DNA of 64,000 bases from a virus (lineage: Duplodnaviria > Caudoviricetes), in the IMG/VR virus record IMGVR_UViG_3300034031_000001, positions 487 through 64,486 of that record. One strand, given 5' to 3'. Below, in pieces: positions 2,978-33,600 of this stretch. Made by a program: the position numbers and the translations under genes. Numbering within the stretch: the stretch's first letter is position 1; every line of letters begins with the position of its first letter. Under the pieces are notes generated by a model. It saw only the letters and a list, made by a program, of their open reading frames with translations, searched no databases and had not been told where the DNA came from.

Positions 2978-3032
2978 GTTTAAGATTTAATATGTGACCC
3001 CATAATGGACGCTTGCAGCCTAACACCTGTTT

Positions 3033-3150
3033 ATACTCCCTGCAAGGAGTTATTAAAAGACTACCACACCAAGTCCTGTTCAGTGGTAACTAGTATTTCT
3101 ACCCACCTTGGACGTGTGCTCGACACAATGGAGGTGTAGTAGCCTTTTAA
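3033..3150 (-). ncRNA. putative structured RNA element
   Basis: 18-bp closing stem (3053-3070 with 3133-3150) that is perfect on the minus strand with 2 G-U pairs; encloses GUCC/GGAC and GGUA-GAAA-UACU stems; adjacent ACUCCU-UGCA-GGGAGU hairpin. Confidence 0.55.
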
Positions 3151-3170
3151 TCGTTCATCTTTAATGTTAT

Positions 3171-3476
3171 TTAAGCAGCTACTGATATATCATCTGCTAT
3201 ATCATCACTGGATTGACCTATTACTTGATTAATTAGATTTGTTGGTAAGGCTAGTGGATACAATGTCTGTATCTCATTCAACTCCCTTAATCCATCTTCA
3301 TCTAACTCTCTACACAAATCTAATAGACACTCAACCCTAATGTGTGCAGTATTTATCTGCTCCAACTTACTAGCGTCTGCGTGTCCTTGTGAAGTCATTA
3401 GGTCAATAACAGCCTGCTTGGCTCGTGCTGCACCCGATAGTCTGGATAACAGTAATGCTTGCAATTGTGCTGACAT
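3171..3476 (-). CDS. hypothetical helical protein
   Basis: 101-aa ORF; TTAAAACAC-type leader. Confidence 0.65.
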   Translation of the reverse strand: MSAQLQALLLSRLSGAARAKQAVIDLMTSQGHADASKLEQINTAHIRVECLLDLCRELDEDGLRELNEIQTLYPLALPTNLINQVIGQSSDDIADDISVAA

Positions 3477-3517
3477 GACTAATGTGTTTTAAATTGTTAA
3501 TGCTATATATACCCTTA

Positions 3518-3805
3518 ATATTATACTGTGAGCCAGCGTTAATAGCCCACAGTATAACATATAAACCTCACAATTCCGACCTAATGTGAGTAAATACACA
3601 GGATATTCGTGTATTTGTGCCCGCTCCTCATCCCATCTTGCGTGATGCTGAGCTTATATATAACACAGTACTTGTCGAAGGTATTGCGCAAATATGCATA
3701 GTTTATATCAATATTATTACACACTACGCTAATAGAGAGGTGTGCCGACACCTTGTTTAGGTTAATGCCCTAGCTTTACTATTAAGCACAGTGTGTAATC
3801 ATATT
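3518..3805 (-). ncRNA. putative large structured non-coding RNA or structured leader
   Basis: ORF-free region with serial stems: 3518-3535/3543-3560 (18 bp, 3 G-U), 3567-3590, 3593-3615, 3716-3735/3779-3799 enclosing AGGUGU-CGGC-ACACCU; mismatches in the long stems resolve as G-U on the minus strand. Confidence 0.55.
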
Positions 3806-3847
3806 GCCCCACTATTATGTGAGTATGTGTAGCCATTTGACTACGTG

Positions 3848-3861
3848 TTAATGCGATGTAT
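3848..3861 (+). repeat. TTAATGCGATGTAT box, copy 1
   Basis: Identical 14-mer at 3999, 17280 and 61638. Confidence 0.8.
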
Positions 3862-3997
3862 ATCAAGTAGAGTAATGCAAATTATAGTAGTTAAGAATGT
3901 GATGAAAACATCCCATAACTACTAGCTCATATAACTCTCAAACATTTATAAATCAATATTAAACGTTTATAAACGATTATTAGTTAATTAAATGCTT

Positions 3998-4020
3998 GTT
4001 AATGCGATGTATTGTCTAAA
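3998..4020 (+). promoter_or_regulatory. TTAATGCGATGTAT box, copy 2 (23-bp exact match to 17279-17301)
   Basis: GTTAATGCGATGTATTGTCTAAA occurs at both sites. Confidence 0.75.
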
Positions 4021-4032
4021 TGAAGAAATAAA

Positions 4033-4064
4033 TTTGGAAGTATGCTCCAAAACCACTATCTTCG
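4033..4064 (+). promoter_or_regulatory. Bacteroidota-type primary-sigma promoter with no downstream plus-strand ORF
   Basis: TTTG (-33), 20-nt spacer, TATCTTCG (-7; consensus TAnnTTTG). Confidence 0.5.
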
Positions 4065-4272
4065 CAGTAGCTATGTGAGTAGCACCTTAATGCAAACGTA
4101 CTACGCCTTCGGCTAACCGCTACACTCCGTTCCGCTAAGCACAAAAAAGCTTCTTAAAACAAAGAGTTTGCTACTTACTAACACTCACTGATAGCGGATG
4201 CTGTGTCTTGTTCCGAAATACTATCTTACTCCAATCAATATCTATATGTTGTGAACCCAAGAATTAACCAGC

Positions 4273-4635
4273 TTATTGCTGGTCATTTCTGTTACTATTA
4301 GCTCTAGCTTCCATTCTCATCTTATCTGCTTCCTTCCAGAACTCCTCTTGGCACTTATGTGATTCCTTCATAGACTCTGTGTTACGTGCTTGCATGAAGC
4401 GAGCAGTATCTAAGTCTGATGCACTTAGCCCACCAATAAGAACTTCCTCACCTTCAGGATTATACTCATTAGGATTACCTTTAGTTGCATCTCCTATAGG
4501 GTTCATAACAAATCCCCCAATTGGTTGAACATCAGGTAGTTGGAATGTAAATACAGCATTGCTGGCATTACTCTCTTGCATTTGGCGTAGCATTTCAAAC
4601 ACTACAGCTTGATTTAAATTAAGGGAAACTAGCAT
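4273..4635 (-). CDS. hypothetical protein (start moved from 4707 to 4635)
   Basis: The upstream part of the 144-aa ORF runs through a terminator hairpin; ATG at 4635 has an A-rich leader. Confidence 0.6.
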   Translation of the reverse strand: MLVSLNLNQAVVFEMLRQMQESNASNAVFTFQLPDVQPIGGFVMNPIGDATKGNPNEYNPEGEEVLIGGLSASDLDTARFMQARNTESMKESHKCQEEFWKEADKMRMEARANSNRNDQQ

Positions 4636-4659
4636 TGTATTTAGATTTAGTTGATTACG

Positions 4660-4705
4660 TGAGAAAAAGAAAGAGGAGTGTATCATTATAATACACTCCC
4701 TTTTC
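4660..4705 (-). terminator. intrinsic terminator after 4734-5387
   Basis: Minus strand GGGAGUGUAUU-AUAA-UGAUACACUCCU followed by CUUUCUUUUUC. Confidence 0.65.
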
Positions 4706-4733
4706 ATTTAGTCCTAGTTCAATTTACGAACTA

Positions 4734-5387
4734 TTACTTACCATCTTGAGCTGGAGTCTGTCCTCCACCACCGGGCTGTTCACCAGCACCAGCTGTGACA
4801 TTGTCCATACGTGCAGCCTCAATCTGAGCTTGCAGTTGTTCAGGACTCAGTTCAGACTCATCGTTCTGGTTGTTATTACCACGAACAAGAGCTAGACGGC
4901 CAATCTTACCAACACCACGTGCAGCGATAAGCTTGGCACGCTCTTGGTTAATCATGGTATTCTGCTCTGCACTACCACGTGCCAGCGCATCCATGTCATT
5001 CGGTACGAAGCGTCCAAGAGGATTCTTGCCCGGAGCACCTGATGTCCAAGCAATCTCGAAAGAATTGCCCTGCCATACTGGTGATGCAAACAACACCTGC
5101 TGTGTAACAGGGTCTTGGATTAGTGCAGTTCTTGGCGTACCATCTGCACCGTCAACACGCACGTTATCCATAACGTCTGCATACGCTTCGTATTCATCCT
5201 GATTGTTGAAGTTAACAACATACAAGAAGAATACACTACCACCCGCTCGCCTGATAGGCTTAGGGTTACTACATAAGAACTTCAGCATACCAAACTTGGC
5301 AGCTGCTTCTCTTGCGGCGACTACGCCTGCATCATTTGGGTCAACTCCACGTAGCTGTGGGATGAAACCTTTGTTTGTACTTGCCAT
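4734..5387 (-). CDS. hypothetical protein, first gene of the leftward operon (possibly nucleic-acid binding)
   Basis: 217 aa, beta-rich core with low-complexity acidic/Gly tail; own structured leader and terminator; function not recognised. Confidence 0.7.
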   Translation of the reverse strand: MASTNKGFIPQLRGVDPNDAGVVAAREAAAKFGMLKFLCSNPKPIRRAGGSVFFLYVVNFNNQDEYEAYADVMDNVRVDGADGTPRTALIQDPVTQQVLFASPVWQGNSFEIAWTSGAPGKNPLGRFVPNDMDALARGSAEQNTMINQERAKLIAARGVGKIGRLALVRGNNNQNDESELSPEQLQAQIEAARMDNVTAGAGEQPGGGGQTPAQDGK

Positions 5388-5444
5388 AACATTTGTTTTA
5401 AGGCGTTAACGATAAATATAACTACTTCCATAACGGATAGAAGC

Positions 5445-5544
5445 CTAGTGTTGGTTGCGCGCTGACATCTGTCTCGATGGACTGTTACTATTCCATTCTG
5501 AGCTGTGCCACGATACCGGGCACACCCCCACGCGCACAATCTAG
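5445..5544 (-). ncRNA. structured 5' leader (multi-way junction) of gene 4734-5387
   Basis: Nested stems CUAG/CUAG, UUGUGCGC/GCGCGCAA, UGUGCC/GGCACA, AUGGA/UCCAU in a GC-rich intergenic stretch. Confidence 0.45.
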
Positions 5545-5619
5545 TCCGGGCTAACTACACAGGGTGGTAAGCCCTCATATAGATATGTTGAACTTTGTAG
5601 GTTTTTTCCGGGGAAAATT

Positions 5620-5650
5620 TTTGGAAAATTCATCAAATAGACTATCTTTA
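5620..5650 (+). promoter_or_regulatory. Bacteroidota-type promoter, probably giving a leaderless mRNA
   Basis: TTTG, 19-nt spacer, TATCTTTA; ATG follows 4 nt later at 5655. Confidence 0.55.
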
Positions 5651-5654
5651 CGTT

Positions 5655-6890
5655 ATGAATTGGATACCTAGTCACGAGAAGGCAATACTAGATACTTTAT
5701 GGGGCTATCCTAATAGGGATGCTATACTAATACAAGGCAGGCAGATGGGGCGCACAAGTCTCATAGAAAGAATGCGTACACAGCAAATACAATATAACAT
5801 AGCTATGGCATCAGCCCAAAGCTTAATAAATGATGCACAAATGGATACAGAACAAGAGAGATTATTGCAACAGCAGATACGTCAATTAGAGGAGAGAGTT
5901 GGTGTACATATAGTTGAGGGTCAAGTAAGTGGACAACCTACTAGTGGATTCTATCCTGAGGGGTCAGTAGATACAGGAGAACATACAGGCCCATCATCAA
6001 ACTATATACATTGGAATAGTGCCCCAGCTCTAGGCCCAGTATATATAGATAACAATACAGCTAGGAACTATCTTAATGGGGAAATAAGTATTGGGAACAC
6101 CTCCCCTAATGAACAAATGGTGGGGCGCTTCACTAGTCAAGCAGCGATAAACAGTCTTAGTGGAGTGGTAAATCCATATAATGGTACTACAGTTCGCCCA
6201 TACATAGTAGATGAGATAGGGCAAATGCCAATGACAGATAGAGCAGAAACATGGGCAAATGCTACAATAGCAGCTAACCCATTAGCTCAGATGATGCCAG
6301 TAGGAGATGGTAGCGCACAATATCATTATGATGAGACTACCAATGGATGGACATGGCAGGCACCAGTTAATACACCTATGCCATATGTTGTAGGAGTAGA
6401 CCCTGTTAGTGCACCGGGAATAGATGGTCAACCCTTTACAGTAAGACTAGATAGAGATGCCTTTGATTACCATACGGTAAATAGGGGAGGTGGTTTATAT
6501 GAGACTATAAGGAATTCAAGTGAACCTACTACTCCCTTAACTGCTGAAACAATTAGAGACACAATGCATCAGGTATTTAATGTACCTAGACCTCAGCGTA
6601 GGGTTCAAGTATTCACTAATGAGGCAGGTATGCGCACCTTTAATGACGCCATGAGAGTAGATGCACGTACATCTTATGACTCTTTAACAAATAAAGTGGA
6701 GTATGGGATGCCATTTGCACTTAGAGGTGACAACAGAATCTGGACAGCTAACTTCCCAGAAGCTAATAGTGCACATTTATGGTTCTGCTCATGCTTAGAT
6801 GAGACAAAGATTATAGCTGATTGGGATATGATACCTATAACTATAGTTCCAGATGAAGAAAAATTTGGAAATATGGATAAAAATACATAG
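5655..6890 (+). CDS. mosaic protein with terminase-, portal- and major-capsid-like segments (candidate immune decoy)
   Basis: Intact 411-aa ORF: ILIQGRQMGRTS (terminase Walker A-like), SLIERMRTQQIQYNIAM (portal-like), NGTTVRPYIVDEIGQMP (TerL Walker B-like), PGIDGQPFTVRL and GLYETIRN..RRVQV (MCP-like). Confidence 0.7.
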   Translation: MNWIPSHEKAILDTLWGYPNRDAILIQGRQMGRTSLIERMRTQQIQYNIAMASAQSLINDAQMDTEQERLLQQQIRQLEERVGVHIVEGQVSGQPTSGFYPEGSVDTGEHTGPSSNYIHWNSAPALGPVYIDNNTARNYLNGEISIGNTSPNEQMVGRFTSQAAINSLSGVVNPYNGTTVRPYIVDEIGQMPMTDRAETWANATIAANPLAQMMPVGDGSAQYHYDETTNGWTWQAPVNTPMPYVVGVDPVSAPGIDGQPFTVRLDRDAFDYHTVNRGGGLYETIRNSSEPTTPLTAETIRDTMHQVFNVPRPQRRVQVFTNEAGMRTFNDAMRVDARTSYDSLTNKVEYGMPFALRGDNRIWTANFPEANSAHLWFCSCLDETKIIADWDMIPITIVPDEEKFGNMDKNT

Positions 6891-6895
6891 GTTTG
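6864..6895 (+). promoter_or_regulatory. Bacteroidota-type promoter
   Basis: TTTG, 20-nt spacer, TAGGTTTG, just upstream of ATG 6912. Confidence 0.6.
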
Positions 6896-6911
6896 CATCA
6901 AACCAGCACCA

Positions 6912-7250
6912 ATGCAAATACTAAAGTTACGTAAAGAGACAGTGAGTAAGGTAGAATTAGCTAATCTAATGCTACATACTTACTGTCTTTTTCAGAATAT
7001 AAAGATTAACAAGACAGAGTTAGATATTCTGTCATATTTTGCTGTATATGGATTTAAAAAGTCCACTAAAGATATCATCTTGCGCAGTAAAATCCTCAAC
7101 TCCCCTAACTCCCTAGAGAATACTATTACAAAATTGCGTAAGCTCCGTCTTCTTGAGAAGAATAGGGATGGGGAAACTGTGCTTATCAAAGAGTTACAGT
7201 TCACAGTTGAGAATAAGATGGGTATGATAATAAAACTGGAGAATGTATGA
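6912..7250 (+). CDS. putative winged-HTH DNA-binding protein
   Basis: INKTELDILSYF...SPNSLENTITKLRKLRLLEK pattern typical of wHTH. Confidence 0.6.
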   Translation: MQILKLRKETVSKVELANLMLHTYCLFQNIKINKTELDILSYFAVYGFKKSTKDIILRSKILNSPNSLENTITKLRKLRLLEKNRDGETVLIKELQFTVENKMGMIIKLENV

Positions 7251-7636
7251 TAGATACTATTAACAATGTTAACAAAGAGGTGGCGCGTGAGCTAGGTATA
7301 GATGAAGCCATTGTTAAAAAGATTAATGCATTCTACTGGAAGGGAGTTAAAGGAGCAATAGCTAGTGGGGAACACACCTCCATTTACTTAAAGAATATTG
7401 GAACACTCTCCATTTCTCGTAACAAGCTGAATAAGAACATACTATATCTTATCAAGCAGTTAAGATTCTTTAAGAACACTACAGAGGAGTTCAAGAAGAA
7501 GACAAGGGAGGAGTATATTGCTGAATTAAGTGAACAATTAAGAAAGATGCTAGCTAGACGCAATGATATAGCTAAGCTCTATAGAGAAACAGAGATTAAG
7601 ATTAAAACTAAGAGAAGAAATGCTACCCAACATTAA
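7247..7636 (+). CDS. HU/IHF-like DNA-binding protein
   Basis: KEVARELGIDEAIVKKI...AIASGEHTSIYLKNIGTLSI matches the HU/IHF N-terminal pattern. Confidence 0.7.
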   Translation: MIDTINNVNKEVARELGIDEAIVKKINAFYWKGVKGAIASGEHTSIYLKNIGTLSISRNKLNKNILYLIKQLRFFKNTTEEFKKKTREEYIAELSEQLRKMLARRNDIAKLYRETEIKIKTKRRNATQH

Positions 7637-7874
7637 ACAGATATGGGAGAATAAACATCTGATAGCTACAGGGCTAGTCAATAGATTCTTCTCCCCAAGA
7701 GAGATTAAAGAATTAGCTAATAAGAGATTGGCCATATGTAATGTATGTCCAGACAATAGCAAGAATACAGTGAGTGGATACAATGTACCATATAGACACT
7801 GTACATTATGCGGATGCTCATTAGCACTTAAACCATATGCTAAACAATCTAAATGCCCGGTAAACAAATGGTAA
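7620..7874 (+). CDS. small Cys-rich Zn-binding protein
   Basis: RLAICNVCP...HCTLCGCSLALK...KCPVNKW. Confidence 0.75.
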   Translation: MLPNIKQIWENKHLIATGLVNRFFSPREIKELANKRLAICNVCPDNSKNTVSGYNVPYRHCTLCGCSLALKPYAKQSKCPVNKW

Positions 7875-8110
7875 AGGTAGGTGACATGATAACCTCTAAC
7901 TATAGAGAAGGTAGAATATTCTATGTTGAGGAGATTCGTAACGATGATGAATTATGGGGAAGACATGTTGAAAACAATCCAACTCCCTTTGAGCAATACT
8001 TTGAACCAGAATATTTCATCATTAGAAACACCTGTGGGGAATTTGATACTATAGGGGGTTGTAATAAGGTAGAGTCATATAAAAACAAACATACAAATGG
8101 AAACATGTAA
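7868..8110 (+). CDS. hypothetical protein
   Basis: MVKVGDMI start overlapping the upstream stop; packed in operon. Confidence 0.55.
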   Translation: MVKVGDMITSNYREGRIFYVEEIRNDDELWGRHVENNPTPFEQYFEPEYFIIRNTCGEFDTIGGCNKVESYKNKHTNGNM

Positions 8111-8651
8111 TCGCGCACAATGCGTATGTAGAGAAAGAGAGGCCACCGTTGAACAGTTAACAAGCTTATCTCACCTAGTAGCTAATCCTTTCTTAAGTGA
8201 TAGTATTAAGACTTCAATAGAGAACCTTATGGATACATTAATCTATAAGATGGAACAGGAGTTAGATATTGATAGGTATGAGGACTTCTCATTGAATTAT
8301 CCTGAGAATATATCACATACACCTCCTCTAATTGACGACCTAGTAGAGTTGGACATGAAGAATGTTAGTAAGACTGAGATTGATGCAGCCATTGATGTAG
8401 CATCACAGAAGAAGGTTAATACTTACACATGGGAACAGGTAATCAGTAGGAGTATTATAACTCCGGGTGAGAAGTATGCACGCATAGATTGGGATAATGG
8501 GTTCAATCAAGAATACATTATGCTATTAGATAATGTAGGTTGGGTAAAATATTTTCGCACAGTTAAGGTGGATAAATTCAAAAATGTCGTACATTCGTTT
8601 GAACCTAGAGAAGAAGATGCTGATGCAGACTGGGTTATACTAAATGACTAA
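8097..8651 (+). CDS. protein with C-terminal DUF2829/Tad2-like domain
   Basis: YTWEQVI...GEKYARIDWDNG...YIML...FEPREEDADADWVIL resembles DUF2829 (G.KVAR.GWNG ... P...D.LA.DW.I). Confidence 0.55.
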   Translation: METCNRAQCVCREREATVEQLTSLSHLVANPFLSDSIKTSIENLMDTLIYKMEQELDIDRYEDFSLNYPENISHTPPLIDDLVELDMKNVSKTEIDAAIDVASQKKVNTYTWEQVISRSIITPGEKYARIDWDNGFNQEYIMLLDNVGWVKYFRTVKVDKFKNVVHSFEPREEDADADWVILND

Positions 8652-8653
8652 CT

Positions 8654-8884
8654 ATGGGCGCTAAAGTAGAGAACACATTTTACAGTGACAAAGAGATTAG
8701 GACAGTATTGGAAAGAAAGGGATATGTATTCCCATACTTACAATCACCATTATGTACACCAAAATATAAGGAGCACCTTATTGCGGAACCAGACTTTAAG
8801 TTTGAGGATATGTACAAACTGTTCAAGAGCATAGTTAACAAGAGATTGAATCAAAGTAAACAACAATTTTTAGATAGCTTATGA
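8654..8884 (+). CDS. hypothetical protein
   Basis: 76-aa ORF abutting its neighbours. Confidence 0.6.
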   Translation: MGAKVENTFYSDKEIRTVLERKGYVFPYLQSPLCTPKYKEHLIAEPDFKFEDMYKLFKSIVNKRLNQSKQQFLDSL

Positions 8885-9126
8885 TATACTACTGTGATAC
8901 AGCCAGACACTTAGTCTGTATCCCATACTCTATAGAGAATCTACATACGATGGCTAAGGACTTGAATATTAAGAGATGTTGGTTCCATAAGAATCACTAT
9001 GATATTCCCCTCAGACGAATTCAGGAGATTACTAGTAAGTGTTTGGTTGTATCAAGTAGAGATATTTTGAGGATAATAAAACCAGATGAGCAAGCAAACA
9101 CAAATAAAGACTATAAAGGACTATAG
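8881..9126 (+). CDS. DUF4031-like protein
   Basis: HLV...SIENLHTMAKDLNIKRCWFH..HYDIP pattern. Confidence 0.7.
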   Translation: MIYYCDTARHLVCIPYSIENLHTMAKDLNIKRCWFHKNHYDIPLRRIQEITSKCLVVSSRDILRIIKPDEQANTNKDYKGL

Positions 9127-10117: not shown

Positions 10118-10418
10118 CAAAGTGATTAATGAAAAGGGAGAGATTTATTTAACTCCACAAATGATACATGAATGGGACATTCACCTGTTGAGGGCACTAG
10201 TGGATAACTACAAGGTTATCACGAATCAACAGGGAATGCAGATGTTACAACAAAAAGATATAGAAGCTACTATGGCACCTAACACAAACAATCAACTAAG
10301 TGAGGACTTGATTAAGACTATGGTCGTTAATGAGTTAAATGACCCTAAGCCCACTAAGTCAAGCAAAGGTAAACACCCAACCAACAGAACTCCACCTAAA
10401 AGAAAAAGGAGAAGATAA
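10110..10418 (+). CDS. hypothetical protein with basic C-terminus
   Basis: MTNKV...PPKRKRRR; contains LTPQMI..KVITNQQGM. Confidence 0.6.
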   Translation: MTNKVINEKGEIYLTPQMIHEWDIHLLRALVDNYKVITNQQGMQMLQQKDIEATMAPNTNNQLSEDLIKTMVVNELNDPKPTKSSKGKHPTNRTPPKRKRRR

Positions 10419-10814: not shown

Positions 10815-11102
10815 ATGGCAAACCAAACATTAGGACAAGAGATTATAAGAGTAGACTTCGCTAAGGATGGTGAAGTAAAGGATATGAAGATTGCATTTGC
10901 TGCACTATTAGACAGACTAATCAATCGCTCACAGGATGCGCAAAAGGCTATGGACACACCTCCAACTATACTAGCACCAGAAGCTATCCAATCCCATATG
11001 GAAGTTATCCGTAAGAATGAAGAGTTAATGCGCTGCATGAGTGAAGCAGGGAAGCTATTAGAAGTTGCGGCAATGTGGGCAGTTAAAGGACTCACTGCAT
11101 AG
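10815..11102 (+). CDS. Acb2/Tad1-like helical-hairpin protein (candidate nucleotide-signal sponge)
   Basis: TLGQ..IRVDF...VKDMK..FA.LLD ... RCMSEAGKLLEVAAMWAVKGLT matches the R..S.A.T.LE.A.MWAVK hairpin pattern. Confidence 0.6.
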   Translation: MANQTLGQEIIRVDFAKDGEVKDMKIAFAALLDRLINRSQDAQKAMDTPPTILAPEAIQSHMEVIRKNEELMRCMSEAGKLLEVAAMWAVKGLTA

Positions 11103-11970: not shown

Positions 11971-14055
11971 ATGAGTAAGAAGATTAGTTACAAGCAACCC
12001 ACCAAGAACATATGGTTCCCAGAACAAGTAGAACCAGATAAAGATGACAAAGAAGCTTTCAGAGCTTATTGGAAAAGGGAGAGAGATAGAATAAGATTTG
12101 GATTCAGAATAGCCAATGACCAAATCTACATATCAGGATGGCTATATTGGTACACAGTCTACTGGATAATTGAGTTAGATACTAAGCTAGCAGATGGACG
12201 TGACTTTAAAGGTAAGGGAGTACCTCTATTCAGAGATATCGAGTGGGAGGTTGGTGATGATATTGAACGAGCAGAAAGGGAGAAGAAGTTATATGTCCTA
12301 GTAGGGTCGCGTGGATTTGGTAAATCTAATGTATGTGCCTCTATAGTTGGACGTATCTATAATTTCTTTGATGATACTGAATCAGTTATATCTGGTGGGT
12401 TCGCAAATGACATTAAACTACTAGCAGATAAGATTAACCTAGGACTATCTAATTGCCACCCCATATGGCACAAACAGAGGCTACTTAATAACTGGAAGCA
12501 GGAAGTTAAGGCTGGCTGGAAGGATAGTGAATCAGGCCTAGATAGAGGCTCTAATAGCCGTATATCTGTACGTAACTATGAAGAGGGTAATAATACAATG
12601 GCCGCGAATGGTACGCGTCCAAAGGTGCAGATTATAGATGAGATAGGTAAGATACCTAACTTAGCTAGATGTGTACTTGATACTGTACCATGTTGGAATA
12701 CAGCCTCTGGTGAACAGTTCTCAATTCCTATCCTTGCAGGAACAGGAGGAGATATGGAGAAGGGTGCTGATGCAGCCAAAATTTTCAGAGAGACTAAACC
12801 ATATAATGTACTTGAGTTTGACGACGAGTGGGAAGGTACTGGTAAAATTGGGAAGTTTGTTCCTGTAACTAAGGCCTTGAATAAGTATAAGGAACCTTGG
12901 ACTCTATTTGACTACTTAACCAAGGTGCGTAAAATGGACTTGCAACCTCACCCGGAATTACAGCGAATCATTATTCTTGTATCTAACGAGGAGAGAGTAA
13001 AGGAGGAGTTTGTTAAGCCTAGGAGAGAAGCTGCATTAAGGTCTAGTACTGGTAATGAGATTATCAAGGAGAAGGCCTACTATCCATTAGTACCTAGTGA
13101 ATCATTCCTTACTATTGATGCAAATGACTTCCCACAAGAAGCTTGTAAGGAGCATAGAAACAATCTTATATCTAATGGGTTCAAGAGCTTTAGGGTAGAG
13201 CTATTCCTCAATGCTGAAGGAGAGACTGCGTTCAAGGCTTCAGATAAGCACCCGGTAAGTGAGTTCCCAGTGAAGTCAGATACTAAGAAAGAGGGCGTTG
13301 TAGAGATAGTGGAGTTCCCTATAAGCAATGCACCTTACGGGCTGTATGTGGCTGGAATTGACCCTTATAAGCAATCTGAATCAGACTATTCAGACTCACT
13401 AGGTTCTGTCTATATCTTTAAACGTATGACAGATAATATGGGAGAGACATTCCAGTACATGCCAGTAGCTTGGTATAATGGTAGGCCTAAGTCTATACAT
13501 GACTGGTATGAGAATGTACGCCTCCTCTTAAAGATGTACAATGCTATAGCTATGTGTGAGAACGCTGACTATGGGTTTATTCAATACATGATTGAGAAGA
13601 ATGAGACATATTATCTAGCAGAAGGTATGTCATTCCTTAAGGAGCTTAATCCTAACACTAGACACAGGTCTACATATGGATTGCCACCAACCACAGCTAC
13701 CATAACACACTGGAATAATACAGCTGTTATCTATACAAAGGAGATGGTAGCTAAGGAGCGTGATGAGAAAGGTAAAGTGACTAGAGAAGTACTGGGTGTA
13801 ACTAGAATACTAGACCCAATGCTATTAGAGGAGATGATGAAATTTAATAAGAATGAGGGTAACTTTGACCGTATAAGGGCATTCTCTATAGCCTTAGCGT
13901 ATGCTAAGCAGTTAGATGCAACTATACCTAAGATAGCCATTACAGAAGAGAGAGAAGAAGCTAAAAAGAAATCAATGCGTAGTCCATTCATGATGGGAGG
14001 CTCCCTAGGATTCAAAGGAAAGGGCCCAAACAGGTCACCATTTATGATGAGGTAA
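11971..14055 (+). CDS. terL: terminase large subunit
   Basis: Walker A GSRGFGKS, Walker B QIIDEIG, coupling motif AGTGG, nuclease YVAGIDPY and GNFDRI. Confidence 0.95.
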   Translation: MSKKISYKQPTKNIWFPEQVEPDKDDKEAFRAYWKRERDRIRFGFRIANDQIYISGWLYWYTVYWIIELDTKLADGRDFKGKGVPLFRDIEWEVGDDIERAEREKKLYVLVGSRGFGKSNVCASIVGRIYNFFDDTESVISGGFANDIKLLADKINLGLSNCHPIWHKQRLLNNWKQEVKAGWKDSESGLDRGSNSRISVRNYEEGNNTMAANGTRPKVQIIDEIGKIPNLARCVLDTVPCWNTASGEQFSIPILAGTGGDMEKGADAAKIFRETKPYNVLEFDDEWEGTGKIGKFVPVTKALNKYKEPWTLFDYLTKVRKMDLQPHPELQRIIILVSNEERVKEEFVKPRREAALRSSTGNEIIKEKAYYPLVPSESFLTIDANDFPQEACKEHRNNLISNGFKSFRVELFLNAEGETAFKASDKHPVSEFPVKSDTKKEGVVEIVEFPISNAPYGLYVAGIDPYKQSESDYSDSLGSVYIFKRMTDNMGETFQYMPVAWYNGRPKSIHDWYENVRLLLKMYNAIAMCENADYGFIQYMIEKNETYYLAEGMSFLKELNPNTRHRSTYGLPPTTATITHWNNTAVIYTKEMVAKERDEKGKVTREVLGVTRILDPMLLEEMMKFNKNEGNFDRIRAFSIALAYAKQLDATIPKIAITEEREEAKKKSMRSPFMMGGSLGFKGKGPNRSPFMMR

Positions 14056-14128: not shown

Positions 14129-16852
14129 ATGATTGTAAGCTCGTCAAGTCTATCATTACCTCCTCAAATGCTTCCCCTTAGTCAAAAGACTGAGAAGTGG
14201 AGGCAGGATTGCATGGATGCACTAGAGGCAATAGGTAGACATCAGATAAATCAGAATACCAAGCTTATAGAGAACTATGAGATGGTACGCGGTAAGTTTA
14301 TATACAGCCACTATATTGAACGTGAGGAATACGGGGACTTAATGACTCAGCTAACTAATGAGTTTGAAATGCCCTCTCACCTCCGTCACTATGATATTGT
14401 TTCTCAAGTAATTAATACACTCTCCGGTGAGTATCAGAAGAGACCAGACATATTCCGTGTAAGGTCTAGAGATGAGAACGCCAAGAACAACTATAGTCGT
14501 AAGAAGACTGAGTTGCTAATGGAGTATGTGATGCAAGAGATTAATGGAGGTATAGAAGCTCAACTAGCTAAAGAGGGCTTAGACCCTAATAAACAAGACT
14601 TTGCCTCACAGGAGGAACAACAACAATACCAGCAACAAATAGAACAGAGACGAGGTGCTTTAACCCCACCTGAGGTGGAACGTTACATGCAGACTCAGTG
14701 GATGGACGCTGCTGAAATTTGGGCAGAACATCAGTTAGAGCATGATAAAGACCAGTTCAACTTACCGGAAAAGGAGAAGGTTGAATTTGAAGATATGCTA
14801 ATAGCTGATAGATGCTTTAGACACTTTTATCTCACTCCCTTTGGACACAGTCAAGAGACTTGGAACACTATACACACATTCTATCATAAGTCACCTGAGG
14901 TAACATATATAGAGAATGGTGATTATGTAGGTAGGATACTATATGTATCTCTTCCTGACATTATCAACAGATATGGTCATAAGATGACTGAGAGTGATAT
15001 ACTCTTGCTAGAAGCCTTTAAGAATGAATCCTACAAGGCTAAGCAAGGCTTTGGTTCAGGAGAAGCAACATACTCAGGACTAACAGCAGGAACAGGTATG
15101 CCTCATCAGAATTACGATGAGCAAAAGTTTGTAAGTGGACACTTAGGGTTTGACCCTAATAATCCTGAATCTACCAACCATAATATTGACATTGCGTTAG
15201 GTAGTGGAGATGCTATCAACAACATGAATAAGTATGGGCTCTATGAGGTCACAGAGGCCTACTGGATGTCCCAACGTAAGATTGGTAAGTATGTCTACAA
15301 TGACTACGAGACTGGGGAAGTAATGGTAATGCTTGTGGACGAAACGTTCAGCTTACCGGGTGTAAAAGAAAGGGAGAACTCATTTCTAGAATTAGGTAAT
15401 GACCTAGAACCTAACACTATTACTTGGACTTGGGTTAACGAAGTATACAAGGGTATCAAGATAAACAACAGATATAACAACCTAGCTAAACCTCTCTATA
15501 TTGATGTAGGTGTAGCTGAGTTCCAATTTAGAGGAGACCTGAATATATATGGGGCTAAGCTTCCTGTATGTGGTCAGATATTCAACAACAGAAATGCAGA
15601 GTCAATGTCTCTAGTAGACTTGATGAAGCCACACCAGATTGGCTACAATGTAGCTATGAATCAGCTGTATGAGATTATGCAGCGTGAGATTGGTAGGTTC
15701 ATGTTGATGGATATGAACTTTATCCCGTCAGGTAAAGATTGGGGTGGTGAGCATAATTTTGAAAAATTAATGTTGGTTGCTAAGCAGTTAGGTATAGCCC
15801 CACTAGATGGTAGCCCTGCCAATACTAAGCAATCAAGCTTCTCACATTTCCAAGAGATTGACTTGGATGAATCCGCAAGGATGATATCTAGGCTCAAAAT
15901 AGCTGAGGCATTTGAGAACTTTGCACTTAAGCAAGTAGGTATCACACCACAGAGACTAGGTGCAACAACTGCGTCAGAATCTGCAACAGGTGTACAACAG
16001 GCTGTTAATCAGTCCTATGCACAGACAGAGAGTCACTTCACTAACTTCTCCAATTATAAGAGGAGATGCTTACAGATGAACTTAGAGATAGCTCAGTACG
16101 TACAATCCAAAAAGGAGAATGTACAACTAGCTTATGTTAAGTCTGACATGTCCCGTGCATTTGTAGAAATAGCTGGAACAGACCTCCTCTTATCTGAGTT
16201 CGGGGTAAGAGTAGCTAATAGTGCAGAAGAAGTAAGGAAGCTAGAGATGATGAGACAACTGTTCCTTGAGAACAATACTACTGGTGCTAATCCAACAGAC
16301 CTAGCTACAGTTATCATGTCTAATAGTCCTGCTGAGATTAAGGCACAACTGGCTGCATCTTGGAAAGCTCAACAAGCTCAACAACAACAACAAATGCAAT
16401 CTGAACAGCAAGGTATGCAAGCACAAATACAAGCTGCTGCTGAAGAGGCTGAAAAGAAACGTCAGTTTGAAGCTGAACAAGCTGAACTTGATAGAGCTAA
16501 TGAAAGGTATATTACTGAAGTTAGAGCACTTGGTAGTGTGGGCTTAGGTGGTAACCCAGACATAGATGGAAGTGGAGTACCTGATGTACTTGAGGTACAG
16601 AAGCTAAACATGGAAATGGGTAAGCATACTGAGGATATACTATTCAAGAGACAAGAGGCTCGTATGAAGCTTAATGAGCAGAAGACTAAGGCTGATATCG
16701 AGAAGGATAAGGTTAAACTTGAAAAGGAGAGAATGAGCCATGAGAAAGAGGAGAATGAGAAAGATAGACAGGTTGAGCGTGAGAACATGGTCAATGACCT
16801 AGCTATTGAGAAACAACGTGCTAAGAACAAACCTAAACCTTCAAGTAAATAA
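14129..16852 (+). CDS. portal protein
   Basis: 907 aa after TerL; LRHYDIVSQVINTLSGEY, SLVDLMKPHQIGYN, GITPQRLG, coiled-coil C-terminus, as in crAss-like portals. Confidence 0.9.
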   Translation: MIVSSSSLSLPPQMLPLSQKTEKWRQDCMDALEAIGRHQINQNTKLIENYEMVRGKFIYSHYIEREEYGDLMTQLTNEFEMPSHLRHYDIVSQVINTLSGEYQKRPDIFRVRSRDENAKNNYSRKKTELLMEYVMQEINGGIEAQLAKEGLDPNKQDFASQEEQQQYQQQIEQRRGALTPPEVERYMQTQWMDAAEIWAEHQLEHDKDQFNLPEKEKVEFEDMLIADRCFRHFYLTPFGHSQETWNTIHTFYHKSPEVTYIENGDYVGRILYVSLPDIINRYGHKMTESDILLLEAFKNESYKAKQGFGSGEATYSGLTAGTGMPHQNYDEQKFVSGHLGFDPNNPESTNHNIDIALGSGDAINNMNKYGLYEVTEAYWMSQRKIGKYVYNDYETGEVMVMLVDETFSLPGVKERENSFLELGNDLEPNTITWTWVNEVYKGIKINNRYNNLAKPLYIDVGVAEFQFRGDLNIYGAKLPVCGQIFNNRNAESMSLVDLMKPHQIGYNVAMNQLYEIMQREIGRFMLMDMNFIPSGKDWGGEHNFEKLMLVAKQLGIAPLDGSPANTKQSSFSHFQEIDLDESARMISRLKIAEAFENFALKQVGITPQRLGATTASESATGVQQAVNQSYAQTESHFTNFSNYKRRCLQMNLEIAQYVQSKKENVQLAYVKSDMSRAFVEIAGTDLLLSEFGVRVANSAEEVRKLEMMRQLFLENNTTGANPTDLATVIMSNSPAEIKAQLAASWKAQQAQQQQQMQSEQQGMQAQIQAAAEEAEKKRQFEAEQAELDRANERYITEVRALGSVGLGGNPDIDGSGVPDVLEVQKLNMEMGKHTEDILFKRQEARMKLNEQKTKADIEKDKVKLEKERMSHEKEENEKDRQVERENMVNDLAIEKQRAKNKPKPSSK

Positions 16853-18572: not shown

Positions 18573-20171
18573 ATGGCATCCTTAACAACTTTTAATAACT
18601 CACTGGTAGTAAGTCAGTCTGAGTTTAAAGCAGGCAAGTATACCGATACCAATACAATTTATTCTTGGTATAAGAAAGATACCTTTACAAATTATAAGGG
18701 TATGCTTGCACTTTGGAACCAGCGCAGACTGGTTAACACTCCACTATTGAACATGACTGAGTTGAAGAACAACGTCGTATATGTTAATGGTGCTGAGGGT
18801 AAATTCTCCTACAGTGTTCCTTACGAAATTGGCTTGCCAGTTATGGTAGAGAACATGGTATCTGGTAACTCAACTCCGGGTATTGATGGTCAGAAATTCA
18901 AAATTAAGCTGAGTGAAGATTGCTTCACTAATACAGACAGAATCACTTATGATTATCGTGATGGTATCGAACTTTACGTTACCGAAGACGAAATCTATCA
19001 TGAGAATGGGGGTTATGTATACACCGTGCAAGTAGTATCTTTCGACAGAAAGAATGCCTATTTCCCACCTGCAAAGCTTGCACCCGGTACTCCATTCATG
19101 AAGATATCTAACTCTAACCATGAGTATGATACACAGAAGTCTAGCATCACTACTAAGTTTGGTAGCTTGAAGCTTGAGAATCAGATTGGTGGTGCACGTT
19201 CAGTTTACCACTGGATTACAGCATATGCTGACATGTTGAAGGTTAGTGACCCTAACATGGCGTGGATATCATCTGTATATGGTGACCTGAAGAATTCCAA
19301 CTCTACAATGGTTATGTATAACCTTGATGAAGCTGGTAAACCTAAGAAGGGTTCTCTCCGCTGGATGAGCATGGTTGAGGCTATGTTATGGGCAGAGATG
19401 AAGAAGATGGAAGAAATGGACTTGATGTGGTCTAAAGGTGGTGTGGTTGAAGGTTCTGGTAGAACTCCAGTGCGTGTAGGTATGGGCTTGTATGAGCAAA
19501 TGCGTAATGGTACACGTCTGAAATACACAACTCTTTCTAAGGCAATGTTGGATGGTCTGTTTGGACAGTTATTCTACAACTCAGGTATTCCAATTGAGAA
19601 GCGTAGAGTTAAGGTACAAGTAGGTACTGGCGCAATGATTGAGGTTCAGAAATTAATTGAGAATGAATTTGGTAAGACTCCATTTACAGTTAACGCTAGT
19701 GATGTAGGATTACTTAAGGGAGATTCTCAGAATCTGAAATTTGGTTACAGATTTACATCAATGCAGTTCCCTACAGCGGGATGGGTTGAATTCGAAATTA
19801 ACCCTGCATTTGACAACTTATATAACAGAGTAGCTGATGGACTTATCGGAGAGTTCCCAGTACACTCTTACACGCTTGCAATCTTTGACGTAACAAACGA
19901 CAGAGAGACTAATGCAGCTGCTAAGATGGATACTCAGTTCCGTTATGAGCAAGGTGCAAACAATGGCTCTAACATAACACTAGTTAAACCTGAAGGTATG
20001 GATGGCATTGTATGGGGTTATGAACTCGGTACACACGCACCAAACTGGATGAGTAGCGGCCCAATCTACTCTACTTCACAAAGAGATGGTTATGCTATCT
20101 GGATGAAGAGTATGAGTGCAATATGGCTGAAAGATGCTTCTAGAAGTATCCTGCTTGAAAAGAATGTATAA
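18573..20171 (+). CDS. major capsid protein
   Basis: 532 aa; PGIDGQKFKIKL, YTVQ, GMGLYEQM, GYRFTS, NPAFD, IWLKDASR motifs and synteny of crAss-like MCPs. Confidence 0.9.
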   Translation: MASLTTFNNSLVVSQSEFKAGKYTDTNTIYSWYKKDTFTNYKGMLALWNQRRLVNTPLLNMTELKNNVVYVNGAEGKFSYSVPYEIGLPVMVENMVSGNSTPGIDGQKFKIKLSEDCFTNTDRITYDYRDGIELYVTEDEIYHENGGYVYTVQVVSFDRKNAYFPPAKLAPGTPFMKISNSNHEYDTQKSSITTKFGSLKLENQIGGARSVYHWITAYADMLKVSDPNMAWISSVYGDLKNSNSTMVMYNLDEAGKPKKGSLRWMSMVEAMLWAEMKKMEEMDLMWSKGGVVEGSGRTPVRVGMGLYEQMRNGTRLKYTTLSKAMLDGLFGQLFYNSGIPIEKRRVKVQVGTGAMIEVQKLIENEFGKTPFTVNASDVGLLKGDSQNLKFGYRFTSMQFPTAGWVEFEINPAFDNLYNRVADGLIGEFPVHSYTLAIFDVTNDRETNAAAKMDTQFRYEQGANNGSNITLVKPEGMDGIVWGYELGTHAPNWMSSGPIYSTSQRDGYAIWMKSMSAIWLKDASRSILLEKNV

Positions 20172-29772: not shown

Positions 29773-30638
29773 TGGATAGACATTCATTCAGAAGTACGGA
29801 CGCAATGTTCGCTAGAATACGAGAAGACCTATATACATTTGATAATGCAGGCATGATTGATGAAGGTAGATTCTACAAGCAAGTAGTCTACATTATCAAC
29901 CTATTAGGTATTAACTGGTACATTGACGCTGAAGAAATAATTGACGTATGTAACTATACAGCAGACTTACCTGATGACTTCAAACTACTTGAAGTAGCAT
30001 TCAAGTGTAGTAAGTCTGTGGAGCAAGAGAATGCGGATGGTGTATTACTTAAGAGGAGAGTATTTGATTACTATCCTGAGATTGCCAACCCAAGTACACA
30101 CTCATACGTATGTAAGGACTGTCCAGACTTCTGGAAACTCCCACCTACATGTCAGTTCAATAGACAAGAAGAGATATTAGTACCTAGGGGCTCAACCATA
30201 CTTAGATATTCTTCTCCTCTTCTCTTAAAATTGGGCAATGTAGACACAAAGAAATGCTGTGTTACCAACTGTACTAACATGTTCAGTAGGGCAACAGATG
30301 AGATAACAATAACTAACAATAGAGTATTTACAAACTTCAAGGATGGTAGTATATACTTAATGTACAATGCATTTCCCCTTGATGAAGAAACACACCTCCC
30401 TTTAATACCAGATGACCCTATCATTGAGAAGTGTATAGAGGACTACATCAAGTACAATTTGATGAAGAATATGGTGACTAATGGAGATGGTGATGTGTCA
30501 AGATTATTACAACTGTATAGAGATGATTATAAAGAGTCTCTGTCACAAGCTATATATCTTACCAAGCTACCTACCTTCAAGTCTATGACGGACATGATAC
30601 GTAGAAACAAGAAGAGTCTTAACCTTTACCAACTGTAA
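29772..30638 (+). CDS. putative tail ring protein
   Basis: ADLPDDF, FTNFKDGSIYLMY..PLDEE..LPLIPD, IEDYIKY. Confidence 0.65.
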   Translation: MDRHSFRSTDAMFARIREDLYTFDNAGMIDEGRFYKQVVYIINLLGINWYIDAEEIIDVCNYTADLPDDFKLLEVAFKCSKSVEQENADGVLLKRRVFDYYPEIANPSTHSYVCKDCPDFWKLPPTCQFNRQEEILVPRGSTILRYSSPLLLKLGNVDTKKCCVTNCTNMFSRATDEITITNNRVFTNFKDGSIYLMYNAFPLDEETHLPLIPDDPIIEKCIEDYIKYNLMKNMVTNGDGDVSRLLQLYRDDYKESLSQAIYLTKLPTFKSMTDMIRRNKKSLNLYQL

Positions 30639-33600
30639 TGGATAACAAAGAATTGAATCAACCCATTAAGGGACTTAATACAGATGTTCACCCAATCAAT
30701 CTTGATGGTAAGAGTGCATATACTTATGCCCTCAATGCACGTCAAGAGAGTGAGGATGGTGGGCAAATGAGTCTAACTAATGAACCTAGTAATACTATAG
30801 CGGAGTTATTCCCTAAGGGTTATAAGGTCATTGGTAGGATTAACATTGTTGAGGTTGGACGTACCATGTATTGGCTTGTTAACCCTGAAACAGGTGGCTC
30901 TGAGATAGGTTATATTGAGAATGATGCATCTAAGTGTATAGATACTATTAATCTGGTTGACCCTGATAATACTAACTATTGTGCTGAGTGCCCTCAGAAT
31001 GAGCCAACAGAAGCTGTATTTGGTGAGGAGACAGAGAGTACTGGTAACCCATGCATGGTATACGTGAAGATGGTTAATGACCCGTGCCTTAACTTCTCTT
31101 ATGACCATCCTATACACAAAGCTGAATATGAGATAACTAATAAGACTATACGCCTCTATTGGACTGATAACTACAATCCAATGAAGTGGTTAGATACTAA
31201 TAACATACCATACCTTTCAAATGGTGCACTTAACTGCAACTTGACTAAGGTATTCCCTGACTTCGAAGTACCTACTATTAAGGTAGTAGATGAGTTAGAT
31301 ACAGGCTCTCTCAAGGTTGGTACATACCAATTCCTTGTAGCCTATGCTAATAGTAAGGGAGAAGAGTTATCACAGTACTATTCTGTGACTAACCCTGCTG
31401 GTGTGTGGGAAAATAAGATAGATGATAAACCTTCATTTGTCACATCACGCTCCATTAAAATACACATAGACCACCTAGATGAGAACTTTAAGTACTTCAA
31501 TATAGCTGTAATCAAGACTATTGAGGGTGTACAAAGTTATGACCTAGTTGGTACATACGACATTATAAATGACCACTTTGAGTATGTTTATACAGGTAAT
31601 GATAAGTCTCCTAGAGAGCTTACATTAAATGAGATATACTTCAGGTCTCCTTCATATAAGAGGTCTGGTACTGTTGAAGCTCAGAATAATATTCTTATGT
31701 GGGGTAATCTCCATAGTAAGAAGAGAGTTAACTATCAGTCAGTAGCTAATAGAATCAAACTTCAGTGGGAGACATGGACACTACCAGTGAACAAGTTCCA
31801 AGCTTATAACAACATAGCTAACACAGCTGAGTTGAGGGGTTATATGCGTGATGAAGTTTATGCATTTGACTTCGTACCTCTATTTAAGGATGGTACAATG
31901 GGTGATAGATTCCCTATACCGGGCCCACAAGCAGGGCCTACTGATTGGGATGCTATCACTAATGACGATGCTGTAAACTCTGATGTAGACAAATGTAAGC
32001 CCGGAGAAGATAAATACAGATGGCAAGTATACAATACTGCTAAAGAAATAGACTATTCACCTGAGTATGTAGCTTCTGGTGGGGATAATTGTGTCGATAT
32101 AGTAGTACCGGGTACATCTGTAAATACAGGAACTACTACAGTAACACCGCTTACAGGTACTGTTAATCAGCTTATTAGTGGTGTAATTACCATAGAGAAG
32201 ACAGGTACTATCAGCAAGATTACTATAGATGTAGCTCAACCTTATCCAGACGATATAGTAGTAGAGCTTGGTTATACTGTTCCGGGTGCAACACCTAACG
32301 CATTACCACAAGCACATAGCTATGCAGGACTGTTTGTACCTGCTAGTATTCCAGCTATACCAACTACATATTCTGCTCCATTTAAGGTAACTATACCTGC
32401 TGGACAGACAACTGTAGTCAGTTTTGGTAATATGAATACTCCTGCCCCTTGGGATTATCACGATACATACGAGGAGATATATGCCCGTATCAAGTGTAAT
32501 AACATGGACTTTGAGGTCTATGCTGAGGATAACACAGGTACATTGCAGAATGTAAGTGGACTAAGTTATCTAATGGATGACACAGGATGTCAGCCTACAG
32601 TTACTATTACTCCAAGTGCAGGCAGTGGTGCAGTAACAGGCACACTAAATTTTGTGGACACCTTAAATAATGGTGGTGGTACAGGAGACCCACTCACAGC
32701 TGTAGTAACACTAAACTCTCCCTTAACTTATGACCTAACTCTAGAGATAGGCTACATAAGTCTTAATACAGATGGTAACTACCGTTCAAGAGGATTTGAT
32801 ATAATTCCTCCAGCTAACATGCCATCAAACACAATAGGTTATAACTTATACCCTATTGCAGGTTTTGGTATACCGGGAACTATTGTCATTCCAGCTGGAC
32901 AGACAACTGTTACTGTACCTAATTTTGGCAGTAACTCATCTTGGTATATATTACCAGATATGGATAACTGGTATACAGACATTTATATCAAGGCATCTCC
33001 TTGTCAGGCAGTTAATTTTGACTTCACTACACAAAGTCTTGAAGGAGAGAATCAACCTCCTATTAATGTACACAATATAGGTGATGCATGTTCTAGTGAT
33101 ACTATCACAGTGTGTTCACCTAATAAGTGTTATATAGGCCCATATAAGTATGGTGAGTTTGGATTCTGGCAGAGTACTGAGAGATACCCTAATGACCCTG
33201 ATGTATGGGGTGAATTAGCTGGTCAGCTCATCAGACACCATAGATTCCCTGACTGTGCTATATCCCCTATACACGATAACAATATCACTGGAGATATCAA
33301 CTATGAACATACTATATTTCCTATAGGTGTTAAGGTTGATGAATTCAACATAATGGAGGCTATAAAGAACTCCAGTTTAAGTCAAGAGGAGAAAGATGAC
33401 ATAATAGGTATCAAGATACTTAGGTCTTACCGTGGTCGTAATAGAAGTATTGTGGCTAAAGGTATGGTGTTTAATGTTGGTCAGTATGAGAAGGATAAAC
33501 AAAAGTTCTTATATCCTAACTATCCATTCAATGACTTAAGAAGTGACCCATTCTTATCTGCAACTGAGGTAGAGAGGACTATTGAAATGGTTCCGGGCAT

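Follow-up and report, generated by a model that had tools for sequence, protein, structure and literature searches.

What is an intact open reading frame (ORF) with stretches resembling terminase, portal and capsid proteins doing upstream of the head genes of a crAss-type phage? This question is raised by P0001, an ORF at 5655–6890 (+) in a 64,000-base stretch of viral DNA (hereafter the window), which is part of the 64,486-base IMG/VR record IMGVR_UViG_3300034031_000001 (completeness estimate ~52%). An earlier note on this DNA had described P0001 as one gene assembled from fragments of three head proteins and had proposed that it acts as a decoy for immune sensors. It was found here that its C-terminal 215 residues are, on solid sequence evidence, a block-deleted relative of crAss-type major capsid proteins (MCPs), and that P0001 as a whole is an orphan lying at a break in gene order. 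P0001 is probably a lineage-restricted chimeric gene whose capsid part is the remnant of a foreign head-gene block; its origin by deletion, and everything said below about its function, is what we infer from these observations.

The frame is open throughout, as the earlier note had stated, and all five segment pairs that it had quoted are present where it placed them. The parts of P0001 and the resident proteins with which they are compared, including the large terminase (TerL), are as follows.

5655–6890 (+): P0001, intact orphan ORF of 411 residues, open from the ATG at 5655 to the stop codon at 6888–6890
5655–6242 (+): N-terminal half, residues 1–196, with predicted helices at about residues 33–82 and then a stretch rich in Gly, Ser, Thr, Asn and Pro
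5724–5759 (+): Walker A-like motif ILIQGRQMGRTS, residues 24–35, in which Arg replaces the P-loop Lys
5727–5807 (+): portal-like stretch, residues 25–51 (27 residues), aligned to portal columns 491–510 and overlapping the Walker A-like motif
6180–6245 (+): Walker B-like stretch NGTTVRPYIVDEIGQMPMTDRA, residues 176–197, directly adjoining the capsid-derived part
6243–6470 (+): MCP block 1, residues 197–272, against MCP 45–127 (N-arm helix, rising E-loop strands, first insertion-domain strand)
6471–6803 (+): MCP block 2, residues 273–383, against MCP 297–415 (A-domain core, strands and two long helices)
6822–6887 (+): possible MCP C-terminal remnants, residues 390–411, against MCP 481–490 and 521–532, short and seen in alignment A3 only
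11971–14055: resident TerL (PHROG 6681, E 5.7e-77)
14129–16852: resident portal protein (PHROG 6547, E 4.2e-116)
18573–20171: resident MCP (Pfam Crass_capsid, E 4e-31)

Capsid Homology of the C-Terminal Half

BLASTP of P0001 against the resident MCP gives two collinear matches, 200–270 with 48–118 (E 2e-5) and 275–319 with 300–348 (E 8e-4); the Smith–Waterman score of the pair is reached by 0/300 shuffles, and the resident MCP is the clear best partner of P0001 among the 50 window ORFs of at least 100 residues. Similarly, PHROG 11589 (major head protein) is matched at E 3.8e-4 by whole P0001 and at E 7e-5 by its C-terminal half, over 68 residues. In a set of 201 MCPs (120 from a protein search, 80 from related loci, and the resident), 194 give a BLASTP match to P0001, and the best partners belong to an MCP clade that is ~30% identical to the resident (E 3.5e-7). 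When P0001 was searched in five related virus records, the MCP gene was matched in four of them, at E 2.3e-6 to 6.2e-4, and nothing else was.

A hidden Markov model (HMM) was built from 101 of the 201 MCPs (every second one plus the resident), and scores were compared with those of 2,001 decoys, comprising 1,000 full shuffles, 1,000 shuffles within 30-residue blocks and one reversal. P0001 scores 39.3 bits in two collinear domains, compared with 5.3 bits for the best decoy, and none of 1,002 unrelated real ORFs reaches its score. When the resident and its near relatives are taken out, which leaves 66 of 70 members (29–32% identical to the resident), the score is 30.8 bits, which again 0/2,001 decoys reach. 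The second match is lengthened by hhalign to 274–383 against MCP 299–415 (E 1.6e-4), and in 7 of 103 MCP windows no more than 2 of 1,000 decoys reach P0001, a level seen in 0 of 203 windows of four control families. The chance reading is thus refuted for the capsid part, and the two MCP-like segments of the earlier note stand far beyond chance by BLASTP, shuffles, HMMs and hhalign alike.

The capsid part would accordingly lie below the threshold of the curated family while being, by its sequence, homologous to crAss-type MCPs: Pfam PF23898 gives no match to P0001 at E<=10. A sequence search of the PDB returned a chance match only (E 0.43). The MCP HMM, run over all six frames of the window (804 segments), matches the MCP and the P0001 frame only; the small gene at 10149–10253 scores −1.2 bits, and no further capsid, terminase or portal debris was found in other frames of 3000–7400 or elsewhere in the window.

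Segments of the Capsid Protein Kept and Lost

For the comparison of parts, residues 197–411 were aligned with 18 MCPs by MAFFT (alignment A3), and structural elements were taken from an AlphaFold2 (AF2) model of the resident MCP, whose mean predicted local distance difference test score (pLDDT) is moderate at 57.9, the 10-residue blocks covering 91–180 averaging 81–88. The profile of the resident MCP finds PDB 7QOF (E 2.5e-13). Between the two blocks ~170–180 MCP residues are skipped, in agreement with the large gap that had been noticed earlier. Of the columns conserved to at least 90% over the 201 MCPs, P0001 keeps 9/12 in block 1 and 5/7 in block 2 (14/19), a retention that is partly built in because alignments anchor on conserved columns. 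Alignment A3 also pairs residues 390–399 with MCP 481–490 and the last 12 residues with the MCP C-terminus, as possible remnants.

Going by the model, P0001 would lack the spine helix (267–283), the return strand of the E-loop, most P-domain strands and all of the insertion domain beyond its first strand, and of a complete HK97 fold it would have counterparts for the N-arm, the E-loop base and the A-domain core alone. A lattice subunit of HK97 fold needs the spine helix and the P-domain; since these are missing, P0001 would be no lattice subunit of the HK97 kind. It has been reported for crAss001 that the insertion domain of gp32 comprises residues 79–180 within the E-loop, and that an auxiliary protein touches the surface of the A-domain (PMC10172136). 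A predicted complex of the resident MCP with residues 197–411 scored 0.01 against a mark of 0.32, which is evidence neither way.

The distance between the capsid blocks and the resident MCP is about that between separate MCP clades. Over the columns shared in block 1, P0001 is 27% identical to the resident and on average 30% to the distant clade, while the resident and the distant clade are 35% identical to each other; in block 2, the corresponding figures are 25%, 27% and 28%. Together with the conserved columns that are kept, these figures make the pieces look like a working MCP from a third lineage. A recent duplication of the resident MCP was considered and is ruled out, as P0001 shows no DNA similarity to the resident MCP gene and is not closest to the resident clade.

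Orphan Status and Break in Gene Order

No homologue of P0001 was found among 1.84 billion representatives or in a set of 5.8 billion clusters; the sole other copy is a 349-residue piece, 100% identical, on a 2,630-bp contig. Searches of a phage collection with P0001 by tblastn and megablast found nothing, residues 1–199 giving nothing even at E 10. P0001 lies outside the head module and is not conserved among relatives. Relatives at 72–85% MCP identity, on contigs of up to ~130 kb, appear to lack it as well, an absence deduced solely from empty protein searches. Searches with the resident TerL found five distant loci in viral contigs and two short ones in metagenome contigs, neither group reaching the locus of P0001.

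The position of the gene was compared with three relatives at 60% MCP identity. In these, homologues of the window genes at 6912–7250, 7247–7636 and 7620–7874 stand directly downstream of a tRNA array; the three fetched stretches hold 22, 19 and 23 tRNAs, most of them in the array upstream of the packaging genes, and none of the leftward ORFs of the window finds a match in them. In addition, Leptolyngbya phage Lbo-JY46, the nearest named phage (52.5% MCP identity), has 17 annotated tRNAs upstream of its packaging genes. The 64,000-base window has 0 tRNA genes; since the record is about half complete, an array could lie in the missing part. With a tRNA array in the relatives, none in the window and unmatched leftward ORFs, P0001 lies at a synteny break.

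The N-Terminal Half and Its Terminase and Portal Echoes

A terminase-ATPase origin of residues 1–196 is possible on the sequence evidence, with the balance tipping slightly to the other side. The hhhhDE pattern of a Walker B motif is found in the correct order (YIVDE, residues 182–186), 153 residues past the Arg of the Walker A-like motif; in the resident TerL this spacing is ~45 residues shorter. Over the Walker B-like stretch, identity is 45% to the resident TerL and 44–50% to four TerLs of the resident clade; the pairwise match has E 0.013, its score is reached by 6/300 shuffles, and the stretch ends exactly where the capsid homology starts. The pattern RQ.G[KR][ST] occurs 6 times in 3,025,116 six-frame residues, its carriers being 4/88 distinct TerL ORFs, 0/999 other ORFs, and P0001. 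Family HMMs were tried for 15 genes, eight being dropped for having fewer than 5 homologues in the loci. With the TerL HMM that includes the resident, 1/2,001 decoys and 2/999 unrelated real ORFs reach the score of P0001; for four control families, 448 to 1,137 of the 2,001 decoys do so. A feature search of the ESM Atlas with residues 1–199 placed terminase ATPase clusters first (score 0.90, 144–150/256 features shared), a ranking that, by the calibration of the tool, is a lead compatible with a chance match or a distant relative.

Several results weigh against a terminase front half. Without the resident sequences, on which the earlier reader had selected, 18/2,001 decoys reach the TerL HMM score of P0001 (p ~0.01). 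When any 20-column window of TerL is allowed, which corresponds to that reader's real freedom, 266/927 unrelated ORFs match as well as P0001 matches Walker B. By hhalign, the front half matches TerL over the Walker B stretch only, at a probability of 2.9%. Residues 1–199 have no terminase match in Pfam (an unrelated TEA hit at E 0.11 being the only one) and no PHROG match at E<=10. The Walker A-like site reads GRQMGRTS, with Arg where GK[ST] has Lys; its position-specific scoring matrix block is unremarkable, 472–571 of 2,001 decoys reaching the score, and its residues are also those of the portal-like block. The terminase-type Walker A of the earlier note does not stand out from decoys. The Walker B similarity is where that note had placed it, at 45% identity, and family-wise it is not significant.

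No C-terminal RNase H-like nuclease domain of a terminase follows, residues 197–411 being capsid-derived. The motif YVVGVDP had been read as an echo of the TerL nuclease; it sits inside MCP-homologous block 1 and is therefore not terminase-derived. A similarity of residues 76–131 to the start of the TerL nuclease is out of order at E>1 and was treated as chance. Searching the window record with Pfam PF03237 and PF03354 was uninformative, since the resident TerL was missed too.

The portal echo consists of one short block and extends no further. Its pairwise match has E 0.02 and is reached by 15/300 shuffles; with the portal family HMM, the score of P0001 is reached by 2/2,001 decoys and 5/1,002 unrelated real ORFs when the resident is included, and by 24/2,001 decoys (p ~0.01) when it is left out. 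The block taken without the resident scores 20.7 bits, which 0/1,000 decoys reach and which 14/931 unrelated ORFs reach in some window of the portal profile. P0001 keeps 5/16 conserved portal columns, unlike the capsid blocks. The portal segment thus exists at the position given to it, while a portal origin of this stretch appears quite unlikely from its sequence. With ~50 proteins in the window, the TerL and portal window matches are what chance gives, and the concatemer of three proteins that the earlier note had seen falls within chance for a free search in its terminase and portal members. Against this stands an observation that is hard to put down wholly to chance: among 803 segments of the window, the TerL HMM and the portal HMM both have the P0001 frame as their best non-self match.

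Start Region, Composition and Setting

P0001 heads a block of rightward accessory and head genes, as had been noticed, being the first + strand gene past a divergent intergenic region. The features around its start are as follows.

5620–5650 (+): TTTG-N19-TATCTTTA, a promoter-like motif of putative function, with 4 nt between its end and the ATG of P0001
5620–5650, 6864–6895, 9804–9834 and 28500–28530 (+): TTTG-N18-21-TANNTTTR motifs near starts
4734–5387 (−): divergent neighbour o217, an orphan of 217 residues with a G+C content of 0.49
4273–4707 (−): o144, the next leftward ORF, 144 residues, without a family match

The layout of the motif in front of P0001 also precedes the ATGs at 6912, 9839 and 28557, and of the five TTTG-N18-21-TANNTTTR motifs in the window, four have their end 4 to 26 bases ahead of a start codon on the + strand; two of them would yield leaderless or nearly leaderless mRNAs. 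A Shine–Dalgarno sequence is absent before most window genes. We take this layout to be of the Bacteroidota promoter type, and the nearest isolated phage is reported from a cyanobacterium. The number of motifs is not above chance (5 against 2.39 expected, with 9/100 shuffles reaching 5), and a scan for sigma-70 promoters shows no excess (10 against 9.5 expected). The host-type promoter that had been assigned to P0001 is not supported by either count. A Bacteroidota host, likewise assumed, is not established, given the affinity to Lbo-JY46 and DNA from biocrust and soil: metagenome runs from both contain DNA around the P0001 ORF. Contigs from four of these runs show zero differences from parts of 4200–7300, and therefore offer no variants for a ratio of nonsynonymous to synonymous substitutions (dN/dS); no RNA run is among the listed runs that contain the stretch.

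The G+C content of the P0001 ORF, 0.409, equals the level of TerL and MCP, which rules out an island of foreign composition; o217 alone is high. An AF2 single-sequence model of P0001 has a mean pLDDT of 30.9 and is unusable, and the ESM Atlas model of P0001 (pLDDT 0.35) has Crass_capsid clusters as its nearest structural neighbours at template modelling scores of 0.27–0.28, which is a lead only.

Several observations concern the surroundings. The G+C content of o217 compares with 0.39 for the window, and its tail is rich in Gly and Gln; o217 and o144 were considered as additional remnants of head genes and gave no match. A Pistol ribozyme (RF02679) is matched over the full model at 2993–3050 (−), with 44.6 bits against a gathering threshold of 34.5 (E 1.2e-5), and sits between two leftward small genes. 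At 8881–9126 (+), an 81-residue protein carries a DUF4031 domain above the Pfam cut-off (E 3.7e-8). Among the neighbouring small genes scanned, the only Pfam match to an anti-defence family is at 10815–11102 (+), a weak, sub-cut-off match to Acb2_Tad1_hairpin (E 0.0089, 16.7 bits against a cut-off of 27), which is compatible with a sponge role without establishing one; the C-terminus of 8097–8651 (+), a candidate Tad2/DUF2829-like region, has no Pfam match at E<=0.1. Two giant ORFs, with 2,206 and 4,000 residues, follow the head genes at 30638–37258 and 44143–56145 (+).

Proposed Origin and Possible Functions

In the origin proposed here, residues 197–411 would be what remains of a crAss-type MCP of HK97 fold after block deletions that spared the N-arm helix, the E-loop base, the first insertion-domain strand, the A-domain core and perhaps the last strands. 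The front half has no demonstrable relatives and may be a decayed terminase ATPase domain. If it is of terminase origin, a single deletion running from just past Walker B of a terminase gene to about codon 45 of a capsid gene would explain the fusion, since the Walker B-like block abuts the capsid homology. The distance of the capsid part from the resident MCP, which matches that between clades, points to another phage or a very old copy as the donor, and P0001 sits at the place where relatives carry a tRNA array. As far as its sequence can tell, P0001 could not serve as a capsid subunit or as a terminase, and on a modest balance of probability it is what a foreign head-gene block left behind on collapsing, a scar that may or may not be expressed and for which no selected function is known. 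Besides the results against a terminase front half and the top rank of the P0001 frame with the TerL and portal HMMs, further points tell against this account. No stop interrupts the frame at the deletion joints, of which there are at least two and perhaps four, and a start motif and kept MCP residues go with it, as a selected function would equally predict; neither an intermediate form nor a donor was found, leaving the deletion history as an inferred one; and the G+C content at third codon positions (0.28) is below that of TerL and MCP (0.37–0.39), which is unexplained. Both a young scar and a kept gene would agree with an open frame over the joints and with the start motif.

Among the other explanations, the one by which there is no gene and all similarities are chance would suit the orphan status and the lack of RNA runs among those listed, and it deserves practically no credence in view of a 411-codon open frame in DNA of 41% G+C and an MCP profile score 34 bits above the best decoy, unreached by any real ORF tested. 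A minor structural or assembly protein of the phage's own head, a vertex- or portal-proximal capsid paralogue as T4 gp24 is to gp23, would agree with an MCP homologue standing upstream of the head genes on the same strand; it is very improbable, since the spine helix, P-domain strands and E-loop return that every HK97-fold lattice subunit uses appear from the model to be missing, and since all relatives lack the gene though they have the same head module. A capsid-only look-alike, whose A-domain and N-arm surfaces would bind a partner of the MCP (a host sensor, a scaffold or auxiliary protein, or the capsomers of a co-infecting relative) without polymerising, is unlikely yet keeps appreciable weight. 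It draws on the intact frame with its promoter-like motif, on the 14/19 conserved columns and on the modelled loss of just those parts that build the lattice, and it finds a parallel in the auxiliary protein that contacts the A-domain in crAss001 (PMC10172136) and in the several defence systems that are described as sensing MCP (10.64898/2026.01.04.697583, PMC13728456). It has to contend with the want of homologues, hence of any sign of selection, with four runs that offer no variants to measure, with a retention of conserved residues partly built into the alignment, and with the failure to obtain a fold (AF2 pLDDT 30.9).

The decoy of the earlier note, a string of terminase, portal and capsid epitopes occupying sensors of the Avs/STAND, CapRel or Lit type or poisoning rivals, would, judged from the sequence, be highly unlikely. 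Its capsid pieces are real (39.3 and 30.8 bits), P0001 is the top non-self match of the window for the TerL and portal HMMs, with the resident in the profiles its scores are matched by just 1 and 2 of 2,001 decoys, and defence systems are known to be triggered by MCP, by terminase and by portal (10.64898/2026.01.04.697583, 10.64898/2026.04.30.721860, PMC13728456). However, at p ~0.01 for TerL and portal once the resident is left out, neither is family-wise significant; only 5/16 conserved portal columns are kept, and the Walker A-like and portal-like claims share residues. In addition, Avs sensors are reported to bind large interfaces on conserved core folds and not to read short linear epitopes (10.64898/2026.01.04.697583, 10.64898/2026.04.30.721860), and Avs2 is reported to be activated, not blocked, by T4 vs.8 and by terminase ATPase domains in isolation (10.64898/2026.04.30.721860). 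Known anti-defence genes recur across phages, whereas P0001 is an orphan, and the available parts of the defence literature searched yielded no capsid-fragment decoy. The published MCP sensing, core-fold binding by Avs and activation of Avs2, together with the want of any such decoy, therefore place the scar above the look-alike and the look-alike above the three-protein decoy. A fuller version of the look-alike, in which a non-assembling A-domain and N-arm under its own promoter, maybe headed by a dead terminase-ATPase-like domain, soaks up capsid or terminase sensors or poisons rival capsomers, is improbable; something else again is unlikely but keeps some weight.

Comparison with Known Systems

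P0001 is a variant of capsid paralogues and of deletion-scar chimeras, both already known kinds. Residues 197–383 align to the N-arm, E-loop base and A-domain core of crAss-type MCPs (PF23898; PhicrAss001 gp32, 7QOF), from which P0001 differs in lacking, besides the skipped residues, most C-terminal P-domain strands and in having 196 unrelated residues in front. Decaying prophages such as cryptic lambdoid ones carry deletion scars in which a shortened large-terminase gene is joined in frame to a gene further downstream. P0001 is likewise a chimeric frame of morphogenesis-gene pieces, possibly with a terminase N-terminus joined to a later head gene; unlike those scars, it lies in a phage with complete terminase, portal and capsid genes of its own, its pieces are not copies of these, and its terminase part is putative. 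The T4 proteins gp24 and gp23 are capsid paralogues, gp24 being a conserved vertex protein with a complete fold. P0001 is similarly a second MCP-related gene in one phage genome, but it is cut down and an orphan.

For the front half, the closest comparison is T4 vs.8, which is described as a stand-alone terminase-ATPase-like protein with clear sequence and structural homology and canonical Walker motifs that activates Avs2 (10.64898/2026.04.30.721860). As a phage accessory protein with no function assigned and with Walker A and B motifs of terminase-ATPase type, it resembles P0001, in whose front half those motifs are Walker-like, with Arg replacing the Walker A Lys, and profile matches fall short of significance. 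It has also been reported that DSAD1 counters the tail-tube sensor DSR2 (PMC11087589). This is the mode of an anti-defence protein competing with a trigger, which P0001 would share if it were one; in the available part of that source DSAD1 is not described as a fragment of the trigger protein, and P0001 is tied to no sensor.

Significance

What the original claim says of terminase and portal should not be handed on as an established finding. Many defence systems, including Avs families, CapRel, Thoeris and CBASS, are being shown to sense capsid proteins. If P0001 has been kept for a function, no capsid-protein fragment would have been seen in use as a mimic before it; and if it soaks up sensors or poisons rival capsomers, debris of structural genes would have given rise to a counter-defence or inter-phage weapon of a new class. 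If P0001 is a scar, it would mean that orphan phage genes can be born from pieces of the core structural genes of other phages while the genome remains otherwise intact, and the locus would mark a recombination hot spot, since relatives carry a tRNA array there.

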